Sequence record: OK148440
From: Escherichia phage MLP3
DNA: 64,000 nucleotides
Direction: 5' to 3' (one strand)
The notes below the pieces were generated by a model. The model had not been told where the DNA came from, did not search any database, and saw nothing but the letters and a program-made list of their open reading frames with translations. Shown in pieces: positions 366 to 50,140 of the stretch. Made by a program: the position numbers and the translations under genes. Within the stretch, counting starts at the first letter, position 1. Every line of letters begins with the position of its first letter.

Positions 366-781
366 ATTAATATTTCCTTATATAAATTTAAGATTGTTGC
401 TCTCTTTGAGCGGTTTGTATACTATATACATTACACTTATACAGATAAGGTTCTATTATACTATAACCTTTTTGGTAGTAGATAATGACAAGTAGTAATG
501 TATATATGGTATAGCTAGTAAAGCTATTGCAGGCTTGTATATTGGGCAATTCATAGAATCCCTTGCAAGTACCGAAGGGCAGGAGCCACCTGCGAGATAA
601 AAATAGAGAATTAAGGAAATCCTTGATTTAGGTTGTAGGGACTCCTAGGGACTTTGATTCTCTATTTAAAAGAATATTAATTACTTACTACCTAAATAAT
701 TAACTAACTTACTTAAACCAAACTCAAGAATAATAGATAAAAAGATTATTCCTAAGAAAGCTAAAAAGTAAAGGATATAAG

Positions 782-6964: not shown

Positions 6965-7008
6965 AACTCCTTAATATATCAGTGTACACTAAGGAGTATA
7001 CATTATGT

Positions 7009-7746
7009 TTATGATTTTTCAGATTCCATTGCTTTAACAATAGCTTTACAGAAACCTGAACGAACAATATCATCTGATTCGCCATCTACTAGAGCGGCAA
7101 ATTCAAATAACTGGTGACGGTAGATGAAATCAGTAGCCCAATCAAGACCGCTCTCACCACGCATGTCGTGCTGGTTAGTGTCCCCCATGCAGAACATCTG
7201 AGAGGTTTCACCAAGACGTGTCATGATTGAATATGCTTCATCAGGAGTAGTGTTCTGGAACTCATCAACAATCACGATAGCATCGTTGAACGAGCGACCA
7301 CGTAGATATTCCAGAGGTACGAACTCAATATTACCATTACCTACTTGACATTCGTAGAAACCTTTACCGTAGCGCTGAGTAATAACATCAACGATTGGCA
7401 TTAGGTATGGTTCAAACTTCTCACGAAGCCCACCGGGAAGTAATCCAAGACTATTACCCATACCAACAGCAGGTCGGCTTAGGATAATCTTCTCAATCTT
7501 CCCACTCTTCAGAGCATCGATCACTGTAGAAGTGATTACGAAGGTCTTACCACATCCAGCAGGAGCATCTGTGAATACAACCTGTTTTGTTTTGATTGCA
7601 TCAAGCAATTCACTCTGGAATTGGTTCTGAGGTACTACCGGCTTAGCAAGAACTACTTCTTCAAATTCCCGCTTTCCTTTCTTGGTGACGAGAGCTTCAC
7701 GACGTAATTCTCTCCGTGATGCTTTCCGAGATTCTCTACGACTCAT
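7009..7746 (-). CDS. phoH: PhoH-like ATPase
   Basis: Walker A APAGCGKT, LSRP, LLPG...EKFEPY, VIVDEFQN motifs. Confidence 0.85.
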   Translation of the reverse strand: MSRRESRKASRRELRREALVTKKGKREFEEVVLAKPVVPQNQFQSELLDAIKTKQVVFTDAPAGCGKTFVITSTVIDALKSGKIEKIILSRPAVGMGNSLGLLPGGLREKFEPYLMPIVDVITQRYGKGFYECQVGNGNIEFVPLEYLRGRSFNDAIVIVDEFQNTTPDEAYSIMTRLGETSQMFCMGDTNQHDMRGESGLDWATDFIYRHQLFEFAALVDGESDDIVRSGFCKAIVKAMESEKS

Positions 7747-8721: not shown

Positions 8722-9030
8722 TTAGATAACCTTGTGCTTGTAGATGCTAGGGTTGAAGTAATGCAACCAGTTTATGTATTGTTTCTGTTCAAGGTAGTGT
8801 CTGCAATCATGACAAAAAGCATGACCCAAACCTGTTTCCTCGTTCAGCTTGAAGTTGATAAGAAGCTTCTGCTTTTGACAGAAGCTACATGCTTTAGTGG
8901 GCTTCACGTAGTGCATCCCATGAGATTGGGAAAAGTTTACGAAGCTCTTCATCAACAGTTGATGCGAACACTCGTACTTCATACTGAGCATGGTCGGACA
9001 GTCGCTGACGACATAACTCTGACCAGCCAT
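8722..9030 (-). CDS. Cys/His-rich small protein (start uncertain; overlaps 3' end of thyX)
   Basis: CSFCQ...CHDCRHY zinc-finger-like motifs; no convincing SD at any candidate start. Confidence 0.35.
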   Translation of the reverse strand: MAGQSYVVSDCPTMLSMKYECSHQLLMKSFVNFSQSHGMHYVKPTKACSFCQKQKLLINFKLNEETGLGHAFCHDCRHYLEQKQYINWLHYFNPSIYKHKVI

Positions 9031-9544
9031 ATAAAGAACCTGTCCACACCCACTCAGTGATCATACCTTGAGGTAGAACGAATCGGGCTTGCTCTGGAGC
9101 AATAAACTTAATCAACTCATCATATGACTCAAGAGCTGTTTCATATGCCCGATTAATCAGAACTAGTGCAGAGTTTTGCGCTCCTGTGGTGAGGAGATTC
9201 CCCGCACCTGCATGGAGGTCCGAAGGTCTTTCAAAAATCTCTTTAGGGATGAAGAGTTCAACTGCTCCATCTTTATACCGCCGGGACATTTCGTTCCACG
9301 AGAATCCAACTTGATGCTTGCCCAGCTGTCTCGCAATTGCGATTGGCGCTTTGCATCGGAAGCTAATTGTCGGATGGCGGAATGGTGTGACATGCTTTTC
9401 TCTGGCAAGGAACTTGATAAGGCGTTCATCTCGTTCATTTAACTCTCCTTCACGAGTAACCCCAAAGGAAACTCGAGCTGCATTAACAACAGATTTATCA
9501 GAACCCATTGCTTCAATTAGTGTTGCTTGTAATTGTTCGTTCAT
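8894..9544 (-). CDS. thyX: flavin-dependent thymidylate synthase ThyX
   Basis: ThyX signature RHP(x)...S and SRRY (RHR-x7-S-like motif). Confidence 0.8.
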   Translation of the reverse strand: MNEQLQATLIEAMGSDKSVVNAARVSFGVTREGELNERDERLIKFLAREKHVTPFRHPTISFRCKAPIAIARQLGKHQVGFSWNEMSRRYKDGAVELFIPKEIFERPSDLHAGAGNLLTTGAQNSALVLINRAYETALESYDELIKFIAPEQARFVLPQGMITEWVWTGSLYGWSELCRQRLSDHAQYEVRVFASTVDEELRKLFPISWDALREAH

Positions 9545-9775: not shown

Positions 9776-10105
9776 TTAAATACCTTTCAGAGCTATATCT
9801 AAAAACGCACGGAGGTTTGATTCAGTTTGCATACCGGACAAGCTGTAGTGAGCACCACTGTTCATATTAGGAACTACAAAGGCTGGGATACTACGAACAC
9901 CGTATTCAACAGCTCGCTCTCGACCATCACCTTCAGTGATATTCACTTCTTCAACCTCTACGTTGTAATCAGCTACAACTTTCTTAAACACAGGAGCCAT
10001 AGCTGCACAGGGTGCACAGGAATTACTATAAAACTTAATAACTTTACTCATTCTATTCCTTGTTAATAAACAGATTGATATGACGCTGGGTAGCAGGAAC
10101 AACAA
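9776..10105 (-). CDS. thioredoxin-like protein
   Basis: CAPC active-site motif, SIPAFVV strand, about 109 aa. Confidence 0.65.
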   Translation of the reverse strand: MLFLLPSVISICLLTRNRMSKVIKFYSNSCAPCAAMAPVFKKVVADYNVEVEEVNITEGDGRERAVEYGVRSIPAFVVPNMNSGAHYSLSGMQTESNLRAFLDIALKGI

Positions 10106-10228: not shown

Positions 10229-10450
10229 TTATGCAGTCCACAGGTGGAGAAGGAAAGGAATCACAACAGAGAAGACTACCAGAGCAATGCTGCCATGTTT
10301 AATGGGTTTAGCGTCATTCGGGTTCTCTTTAAGCATCTGTTTCTGAGCTACATAAACGATACCGCCAACAAAAATTGCCCATACAGACCATACGATTGCT
10401 GAAAACATACTCATATCCTTATAAAGAAGTTCGCCCCACCTCTTGAACAA
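10229..10450 (-). CDS. small membrane protein
   Basis: Two hydrophobic segments (FSAIVWSVWAIFVGGIVYV; IALVVFSVVIPFLLHLW). Confidence 0.4.
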   Translation of the reverse strand: MFKRWGELLYKDMSMFSAIVWSVWAIFVGGIVYVAQKQMLKENPNDAKPIKHGSIALVVFSVVIPFLLHLWTA

Positions 10451-10471
10451 AGAGACAGGGCGGAGGTTTGA

Positions 10472-11047
10472 TTAGTAAGACACGTCACCACTGGAGTGGG
10501 ACATGTTGCTCTTGACGAAGTAACAGAACTTGCCAAGACCTTCATTAATTTCTTGAAGCATACTCTGATCAACTGGATAGGTGCACAAGTCTGAATCAAA
10601 CTCGTCCATCTTCTCAATGATACACATAAGAGTCATGCACATGTCGGAAAGCATACCGTCCATGTCGAGATCAGCGTTACCTTCTCGGAACCAAGCGTGA
10701 CCTAAATAGTTACTAGCAGTGGCATCCACCTTAACACAATGGAAGCGCATACGCTCTGCTATTCGGTCGCCTGCCTCACGGGCATAATCTTCTAGTTCAT
10801 CGAACATACCATGAACACCTTGGAAACCAGCTCCAGAGACGTTCCAGTGGTAGTTCTTTGCTTTGATGTGTAGAAGTTCAAGGTTAGCCTGCACACCACA
10901 AAGAATGTGCTCTAGGCTGTTACTGCTAATCAGTTTATTCATTCCCTCAAGACGAGAGATAGAAGAATCAGTAGTAGAGAATGGATTACTAGAACCCACT
11001 CTTGTTAGTTCTGGTAAGTCGAAGACATTATTATGCATTAGGTGCAT
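10472..11047 (-). CDS. Dps/ferritin-like protein
   Basis: HWNVSGAGFQGVHGMFDE resembles the Dps ferroxidase-site helix (HWNV...F...H...DE). Confidence 0.55.
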   Translation of the reverse strand: MHLMHNNVFDLPELTRVGSSNPFSTTDSSISRLEGMNKLISSNSLEHILCGVQANLELLHIKAKNYHWNVSGAGFQGVHGMFDELEDYAREAGDRIAERMRFHCVKVDATASNYLGHAWFREGNADLDMDGMLSDMCMTLMCIIEKMDEFDSDLCTYPVDQSMLQEINEGLGKFCYFVKSNMSHSSGDVSY

Positions 11048-11378
11048 CCCCTTCTAAGTTAGTTGAATTAGCTACATTACGAGCAATGTTATCCATGACC
11101 TGCTGTGTAATAACAATGCAATTCTGAGGGTCTACCGATTTAGAACGCCCCATCTCAGGGTCATAGACTTTGACTCGCTTGGCTGTTGAGCCAGTAACTT
11201 GCAACACTTTGAGAAGATAACCTTGGTTTCCAATAGACCATGCAACAACATCACGATTCTTGATATAACGACCAAGCATATCACGATGATAGAACTGCTG
11301 CATAACTTTAGCTTTGCTAATCTCTTCAGATGGCGGGGCCACTTTACTCAAATCTAACATAACTCTCTCCTGTTTCAT
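11031..11378 (-). CDS. hypothetical protein
   Basis: 115-aa ORF. Confidence 0.5.
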   Translation of the reverse strand: MKQERVMLDLSKVAPPSEEISKAKVMQQFYHRDMLGRYIKNRDVVAWSIGNQGYLLKVLQVTGSTAKRVKVYDPEMGRSKSVDPQNCIVITQQVMDNIARNVANSTNLEGDAPNA

Positions 11379-11430
11379 ACAATATTCTTATACTGTATAT
11401 ACATTTGAGAGTTATCATATCTACTACCAA

Positions 11431-50076: not shown

Positions 50077-50140
50077 AAGACCTATACAAGCTAGTGTGTA
50101 ATGTATATTCTTTGTCTACATATAACAAGGAGGACAACCT

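Follow-up and report, generated by a model that had tools for sequence, protein, structure and literature searches.

A predicted Dps-family mini-ferritin encoded among the middle genes of the phiEco32-like Escherichia phage MLP3

Does a lytic coliphage carry a ferritin-like protein of its own, and if so, what would such a protein do during infection? This question is raised by an open reading frame on the minus strand of Escherichia phage MLP3 (sequence record OK148440), of which we analysed a stretch of 64,000 nucleotides, called the window below. On the one hand, an earlier note made from the letters of this DNA had read the product as a Dps/ferritin-like protein encoded in the phage early region, which may protect replicating phage DNA or manipulate the iron or redox state of the host. 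On the other hand, the orthologues in public databases carry names that point elsewhere. The product is called an integrase in IME267, 101114BS3, DE5, KM01 and others and also in UniRef, the records so labelled including MZ398243 (IME267), MZ234015, MZ234017, MW741821 and PV018827/8, and many further records give it as a 'DNA-binding protein'. The Dps identification itself is already on record for phiEco32-like phages. The GenBank entry of phiEco32 gp67 has carried the name 'DNA-binding protein' with the remark 'member of the Dps family' since its deposition in 2008, and the SU10 genome paper and the Privateer paper (PMC7881722) both mention a Dps homologue, the latter calling its function unverified. 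The identification as such therefore goes little further than the phiEco32, SU10 and Privateer genome papers. To this record, we add a corrected start codon, the placement of the gene in a middle-class operon behind the promoter P68, the absence of a DNA-binding tail, a clade-specific N-terminal extension, the conserved pairing of the gene with gp68, and the exposure of errors in annotation.

The source phage is a phiEco32-like podophage of the Gordonclarkvirinae. The 6-kb stretch around the Dps gene matched 98 records, all of them from Escherichia/Shigella podophages of the Gordonclarkvirinae, with 97% identity over its full length to vB_EcoP-101114UKE3, HC-25922 and IME267 and approximately 92% identity to ECBP2 and Bas87/88. 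At the protein level, the product showed 99.5% identity to SU7 gp067, making the SU7/HC-25922 type the closest, and 83.5% identity to phiEco32 gp67. Together with SU10 CDS67, these proteins of Kuravirus and Suseptimavirus (phiEco32 gp67 is ABY52868.1) are orthologues with 83-99% protein identity. Their genes occupy the same slot, between gp68 and the genes for a small membrane protein, thioredoxin and ThyX, have the same promoter element in front, and show no substantive difference from the MLP3 copy.

The longest open reading frame at this locus is slightly longer than the gene (Table 1). The minus-strand sequence upstream of the frame reads AGAAGGGGATGCACCTAATGCATAATAATG, and the Shine-Dalgarno-like element AGAAGGGGA lies 9 nt from the second ATG of the frame (11038) and 0 nt from the first (11047). 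The start sites of phiEco32 gp67 and SU7 gp067 in GenBank correspond to the second ATG, and the SU7 record has an annotated ribosome-binding site at the position equivalent to AGAAGGGGA. Because of this spacing and the start sites of the two orthologues, we consider that the true start is most likely the second ATG, 9 nt inside the longest frame. The resulting 188-aa protein, whose residue numbering is used throughout unless the longer frame is named, has a computed mass of 21.1 kDa and a computed pI of 4.79 (4.57 for the core).

Table 1. Coordinates of the features discussed, in positions of the window.
Feature	Position	Strand	Description or basis
Longest open reading frame	10472..11047	minus	191 codons, then TAA; open reading frame list
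Dps-family mini-ferritin gene	10472..11038	minus	188 aa and TAA stop; orthologue of phiEco32 gp67
Shine-Dalgarno-like AGAAGGGGA	11047..11055	minus	serves ATG at 11038; read from sequence
Clade-specific N-terminal extension, residues 1-45	10904..11038	minus	alignment, pLDDT, composition
Ferroxidase residues, codons H64 to E95	10754..10849	minus	gap-free alignment to E. coli and Listeria Dps
gp68-like gene, 109 aa, phrog_10984	11031..11360	minus	PHROG match, 1.8e-62
Promoter element aAATGTAtA, phiEco32 P68 equivalent	11398..11406	minus	matches tAATGTAtA
Hairpin, 13 bp	10432..10462	minus	10 nt past Dps stop; terminator scan
Other exact AATGTATA copy	6997..7004	minus	
Other exact AATGTATA copy	425..432	minus	
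Other exact AATGTATA copy	497..504	plus	
Other exact AATGTATA copy	50100..50107	plus	
Thioredoxin gene	9776..10051	minus	PF00085, 2.4e-12
ThyX gene	8894..9544	minus	PF02511, 1e-42
Ligase Ia domain gene, 106 aa	7925..8245	minus	PF22745, 8e-34
Nucleotidyltransferase gene, 483 aa	12585..14036	minus	phrog_12715
phrog_4939 paralogue, about 70 aa	11431..11646	minus	
phrog_4939 paralogue, about 70 aa	11646..11858	minus	
phrog_4939 paralogue, about 70 aa	9559..9774	minus	
Open reading frame overlapping ThyX	8722..9030	minus	

Membership of this protein in the Dps family is near certain, and the family assignment of the earlier note is borne out by Pfam, PHROG, PDB, profile and AlphaFold2/Foldseek evidence. 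The Pfam family Ferritin (PF00210), which had been proposed as a check, scored 32.9 bits (gathering cut-off, 24.5), with only 44 residues covered (59-102 of the 191-aa frame). The match to PHROG 3636, a family named 'DNA-binding protein', reached 5e-53 over the whole domain. Among PDB sequences, 60 matched, nearly all of them Dps proteins; the best was M. smegmatis Dps2 at approximately 1e-9, and some of the matches to Dps extended over residues 52-188. When a profile of 26 family members was searched against 1.84 billion representatives, 5248 proteins were found at E<=1e-3, which are typically 140-160 aa long and align to profile positions of approximately 35-175. One protein of 1156 aa in the representative search (P0041), with 20 repeated matches, is an artefact of low-complexity repeats and no Dps.

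The predicted structure agrees with this assignment. A four-helix bundle, also named beforehand as a check, was modelled by AlphaFold2 with a mean pLDDT of 82.5 and values above 90 across the bundle, so that a ferritin-like fold is present in the model. The helices span residues 42-66 (A), 72-99 (B), 108-113 (short BC helix), 126-146 (C) and 155-177 (D). The best 50 structures found by Foldseek in the PDB were all Dps proteins, with a probability of 1.00 and TM(target) values of 0.75-0.91, and the rmsd for well-aligned Dps structures was 1.2-2.5 A. The solved Dps structures of M. smegmatis (Dps2, 2z90; Dps1, 1uvh), B. anthracis (Dlp-2, 1jig), Listeria innocua (1qgh) and E. coli (1dps) show the same bundle with the short BC helix, although their sequence identity to the phage protein is only 19-26%. 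A classical ferritin or bacterioferritin of the 24-mer type was considered and rejected: the sole ExxH motif (E54-L-L-H57) is unconserved, with tyrosine in place of H57 in most family members, and the 50 best structural neighbours are all Dps. We likewise rejected the integrase identity given by many GenBank and UniRef labels. Apart from the product name on several deposited orthologues, nothing in our searches speaks for it; the Pfam and NCBIfam searches gave no integrase or recombinase domain, and the Dps fold accounts for the whole protein. Accordingly, we give the integrase reading practically no chance of being right and regard the label as a propagated annotation error.

The active site that defines Dps enzymes is preserved in the phage sequence. 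In a gap-free alignment, H64, W65, H76 and D80 on helix A or at the start of helix B, and D91 and E95 on helix B, correspond with identical spacing to H51, W52, H63, D67, D78 and E82 of E. coli Dps and to H31, W32, H43, D47, D58 and E62 of Listeria innocua Dps; both references had been checked to be identical to the PDB entries (1f30/1dps and 1qgh). The ligand set and its spacing are thus those of the solved bacterial Dps proteins, in which the tryptophan beside the first histidine is also conserved. H64, H76, D91 and E95 were invariant in 13/13 aligned sequences, and all six residues were invariant in the alignment of the 26-member phage family, which reaches down to 38% identity. The absence of ferroxidase ligands, which the earlier note had named as grounds for giving up its reading, was therefore not found; all ligands are present, aligned and invariant. 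The signature that it had quoted, HWNV...G...F...H...DE, is far beyond chance and is present as H64-W65-N66-V67, G69/G71, F72, H76 and D80-E81. However, the carboxylate ligands are not the quoted 'DE' but D91 and E95, which the next helix carries.

On the other hand, the phage protein departs from solved bacterial Dps proteins at several points outside the ferroxidase centre. It has an extra N-terminus of approximately 45 residues that is not basic, it is acidic and lacks a lysine-rich tail, it carries six cysteines, none of which is invariant, and two of the three aspartates of the Listeria pore are replaced. The extension is absent from typical Dps proteins, which align to profile positions of approximately 35-175 only, and also from the Dps of Privateervirus, Moazamivirus and Lahexavirus, which are 146-156 aa long. 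Within the clade, it contains a conserved F-D-L-P motif at its N-terminal end and nearly invariant R29 and M33; it was modelled at a pLDDT of 44-62, with a low-confidence helix at residues 26-38. With regard to iron entry, D121, D126 and D130 of Listeria Dps line the entry pore. These residues align with D150, P155 and S159 of the phage protein, that is, one acidic residue of three, in a loop whose alignment is uncertain, and the C-D loop as a whole is rich in acids (E142, D145, E146, D148, D150 and D157). Given the replaced pore aspartates, iron uptake may differ from that of Listeria Dps.

The charge of the protein bears on the label 'DNA-binding protein'. E. coli Dps binds DNA non-specifically by the lysines of its tail. 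At the aligned positions of K5, K8 and K10 in that tail, the phage protein has phenylalanine, threonine and serine. The N-terminal 45 residues contain one lysine and two arginines against five aspartates or glutamates, the C-terminal tail contains a single lysine, and by composition neither terminus has the Lys/Arg-rich tail of the DNA-binding Dps of the E. coli type. Accordingly, direct DNA binding seems unlikely from the sequence. For an acidic protein (pI 4.79) that lacks a lysine-rich tail, we see no support for the 'DNA-binding' label, which was apparently inherited from the name of the family. The score against NCBIfam NF006975, the equivalog model of enterobacterial Dps, was 34.9 bits, below its cut-off of 114, and the identity to the Dps of the host E. 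coli is 19%. From this score and this identity, we consider the phage Dps to be a distinct lineage and no recent capture of the E. coli gene.

In terms of expression, the placement in an early region did not hold, and the gene lies in a middle-class cluster for replication and nucleotide metabolism. CDS 25-68 are given as the middle class in the SU10 paper; this temporal class rests on what later papers report when citing the genome and transcription work on phiEco32. Upstream of the gp68 gene, 38-46 nt from its start, there is a promoter element that we regard as the equivalent of phiEco32 P68. Its consensus tAATGTAtA is described as a promoter of a single element, to which the phage sigma factor phi32_gp36 responds (PMC8948821), the genes with such a promoter are given as 6, 13, 26, 40, 58 and 68 (PMC8948821, PMC4331800), and P68 is among the phage-sigma promoters listed as consistent with experiment. 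The exact octamer AATGTATA is found in MLP3 and at the equivalent site upstream of gene 68 in phiEco32 and SU7. Our argument for P68 relies on this conserved position and not on the count, since the octamer is not over-represented in the whole window (5 found, 3 expected). Four other exact copies occur in the window (Table 1), of which the minus-strand copy at 6997 is probably the counterpart of the one upstream of phiEco32 gene 58 (positions 7557-7564 of our comparison sequence L001). A sigma-70 promoter for the unit was considered and rejected; a generic promoter scan gave no minus-strand site upstream of gp68, and the phage-sigma element explains the unit better. On these grounds, we place the Dps gene as a middle gene, the second after P68 in a gp68-Dps unit. 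The hairpin that follows the Dps gene has a weak T-tract and an MFE of -18.1 kcal/mol, which is unexceptional with a z-score of only -1.4; its stem is conserved in phiEco32 and its loop differs. It may be a terminator, an attenuator or an RNA-stabilising 3' element closing the gp68-Dps unit. Expression is on record for a related phage, the homologue having been seen in the SU10 lysate by 6 peptides with 35.8% coverage (SU10 paper).

The gene in front of Dps is a conserved partner. The end of the gp68 gene overlaps the Dps start by 8 nt (ATGCATAA), and because gp68 ends inside the Dps gene in this way, translational coupling of the two is suggested. The gp68 protein gave no informative match in the PDB profile search, Pfam, NCBIfam or PADLOC, and its AlphaFold2 model (pLDDT 48) was too poor for a fold search. 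Homologues of gp68 lie directly upstream of Dps in Privateervirus P59 (38% identity), in Lahexavirus LAh_6 (36%) and in two metagenomic contigs (L006 and L007, 71%), and, by coordinates, immediately upstream of Dps in GAP52, BUCT695, ECO319P1 and LAh_9; in SE131, the two genes are approximately 1.3 kb apart. In our comparison sequences, the homologues were located at 2639-2923 of L003, 2609-2962 of L005 and 3681-4001 of L006. The occurrence of the two genes nearly matches, at 133 against 130 of 50,697 phage records and with near-identical genus counts, and two Synechococcus phage records have Dps without gp68.

The neighbourhood of the unit is one of nucleotide metabolism. The thioredoxin and ThyX genes named in the earlier note were both confirmed (Table 1), and genes for dCTP deaminase, a nucleotidyltransferase, PhoH and a stand-alone NAD-ligase Ia domain are also nearby. 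Some of these neighbours have features of their own. Of NAD-dependent DNA ligase, the ligase-like product has the N-terminal Ia (NAD+-binding) domain alone, the adenylation and OB domains being absent; it is labelled 'NAD-dependent DNA ligase' in phiEco32. The nucleotidyltransferase has no Pfam match and ends in a long Ser/Arg/Gly-rich region, seemingly of low complexity. Three paralogues of phrog_4939, two just upstream of P68 and one between thioredoxin and ThyX, are 32-35% identical and have the residues W..V..W...TR.EAR..K...K..I...I..K..Y in common. A further open reading frame, read in a different frame from ThyX, shares 137 nt with the 3' end of that gene; its translation probably begins at an internal Met, and the CxxC...CxxC spacing in its C-terminal part is suggestive of a small zinc-ribbon protein.

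The association with nucleotide metabolism extends beyond MLP3. In every related lineage examined, Dps is found among genes such as ThyX, NrdD/NrdG, dCTP deaminase, PhoH and thioredoxin. Among distant relatives with a Dps of 33-43% identity, the gene follows ThyX directly in SE131 and adjoins anaerobic RNR genes in P59 and LAh_6. In metagenomic contigs of 100 kb, it has dCTP deaminase on one side and ThyX on the other, and NrdD is close by. The Dps proteins of Grimontviridae (Privateer, 7-11/SE131) and Lahexavirus belong to this range of identity and lack the N-terminal extension, and the C3 podophages have the same nucleotide-metabolism cluster and the same gp68 partner as MLP3. Phage Dps also recurs in several other lineages. 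Queries with Listeria and E. coli Dps found Dps in phages of Streptomyces, Lactobacillus, Campylobacter, Clostridium and others, those of the Streptomyces cluster phages of approximately 130 kb and of the Lactobacillus and Campylobacter myophages being recovered only with these queries; in the tblastn matches at E<=1e-3, no gp68 homologue was found in the Streptomyces, Lactobacillus, Campylobacter and Clostridium phages. The gut 'Gratiaviridae' likewise carry a phage-borne Dps. The earlier remark that Dps is not common phage cargo is thus right overall, at a few hundred of the 50,697 phage records, but does not apply to the phiEco32-like lineage, where Dps is a core gene, as it is across the C3-morphotype podophage group.

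With regard to function, we favour, with moderate confidence, a role in the removal of Fe2+ and H2O2 during the synthesis of phage DNA and dNTPs. By homology, twelve four-helix-bundle subunits would assemble into a hollow cage, which in Dps proteins has 23 symmetry. Each dimer interface would contain a site made up of H64 and H76 from one subunit and of D91 and E95 from its neighbour, at which Fe2+ would be bound and oxidised, with H2O2 as the preferred oxidant. The resulting Fe3+ would be deposited inside the cage, such that both Fenton reagents are removed and the formation of hydroxyl radicals is suppressed. The gp68-Dps unit would be transcribed from P68 in the middle phase, alongside thioredoxin, ThyX, dCTP deaminase and the replication genes. 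Induction of the dps gene of the host depends on OxyR and sigma-70. The product of another middle gene, gp79, is described as an inhibitor of host sigma-70 transcription. Once gp79 acts, the host would be left with no sigma-70-dependent response to oxidative stress, and because this shut-off would block the host's own induction, the phage would supply its own buffer against peroxide and iron. Phage Dps and phage thioredoxin could then protect the replicating DNA as well as redox-sensitive enzymes such as ThyX or, where relatives carry it, the glycyl-radical RNR. A comparable rationale, the limiting of oxidative or iron damage during infection, has been proposed for the Dps of gut phages (PMC8008677). 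The assembly of the cage, its activity as a ferroxidase and its part in infection are thus inferred; in the searchable literature, phage Dps proteins came up in genome papers and in one metagenomic discussion, and we found no biochemical or genetic study of one.

Other uses of the protein have to be weighed against this role. The protein could act mainly as a DNA-binding or compacting protein that coats phage DNA or condenses the host nucleoid, as is conceivable considering that some Dps proteins, that of E. coli among them, bind DNA non-specifically and that many records and PHROG 3636 carry this name. The acidic pI of the whole protein and of the core and the lack of the tail lysines speak against such a function, which we regard as improbable. 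The protein could also be associated with the virion and thus be more than a cytoplasmic enzyme; it would then be carried inside the long prolate capsid or on its surface and, for example, protect packaged or injected DNA. This would agree with Dps belonging to the core genes throughout the C3-morphotype podophages. Moreover, mass spectrometry identified the homologue of the Proteus phage Privateer in virions that had passed through CsCl step and equilibrium gradients, in a study whose supplements give no spectral counts for Dps. However, Dps cages are robust particles, so co-purification is plausible, and the promoter is of the middle and not the late type; moreover, Dps occurs in unrelated phages of other morphologies. 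The detection in SU10 does not speak for the virion reading, since the preparation had been purified no further than by PEG precipitation and included DNA polymerase, thioredoxin, PhoH, the sigma factor and early proteins. Altogether, a place in the virion appears to us doubtful, to about the same degree as a role in compacting DNA.

The Dps fold might also serve another end, such as iron supply to Fe-dependent enzymes of the phage or the host, a function that depends on gp68, or counter-defence, with the ferroxidase chemistry being secondary. The conserved and coupled gp68-Dps pair, in which gp68 is the more conserved partner (71% identity to the L006 phage, compared with 47% for Dps), the clade-specific extension with its FDLP motif and the altered pore residues would all fit this reading. 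The strict invariance of the ferroxidase ligands, on the contrary, speaks for selection on the catalytic site; in addition, PADLOC matched neither gp68 nor Dps to a defence or anti-defence model, and gp68 has no informative homologue and a poor structural model. We therefore hold this reading, too, to be unlikely. Slightly less remote, although still speculative, is the idea of gp68 and Dps as a dedicated module of two proteins that is conserved and translationally coupled in all C3-morphotype podophages. Within it, gp68 and/or the FDLP extension would give the acidic, tail-less cage a phage-specific role, for example by targeting it to phage DNA, to the replisome or to the virion. Targeting to the virion would fit the detection of the Privateer homologue in CsCl-purified particles. 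If this were the case, the role of Dps would exceed that of a generic antioxidant. In our assessment, the removal of iron and peroxide during phage DNA and dNTP synthesis is nevertheless the role that the protein probably has.

In summary, in this study, we confirmed a Dps-family protein in a phiEco32-like phage and, with it, mended two widespread labels, the erroneous 'integrase' and the unsupported 'DNA-binding protein'. The former, if believed, could wrongly mark strictly lytic phages as temperate. Our analysis indicates that a lytic coliphage lineage keeps a predicted intact ferroxidase cage as a core middle gene beside the enzymes of dNTP synthesis. The gene thereby poses the question of whether phages need control of iron and peroxide after they have silenced the stress response of their host.
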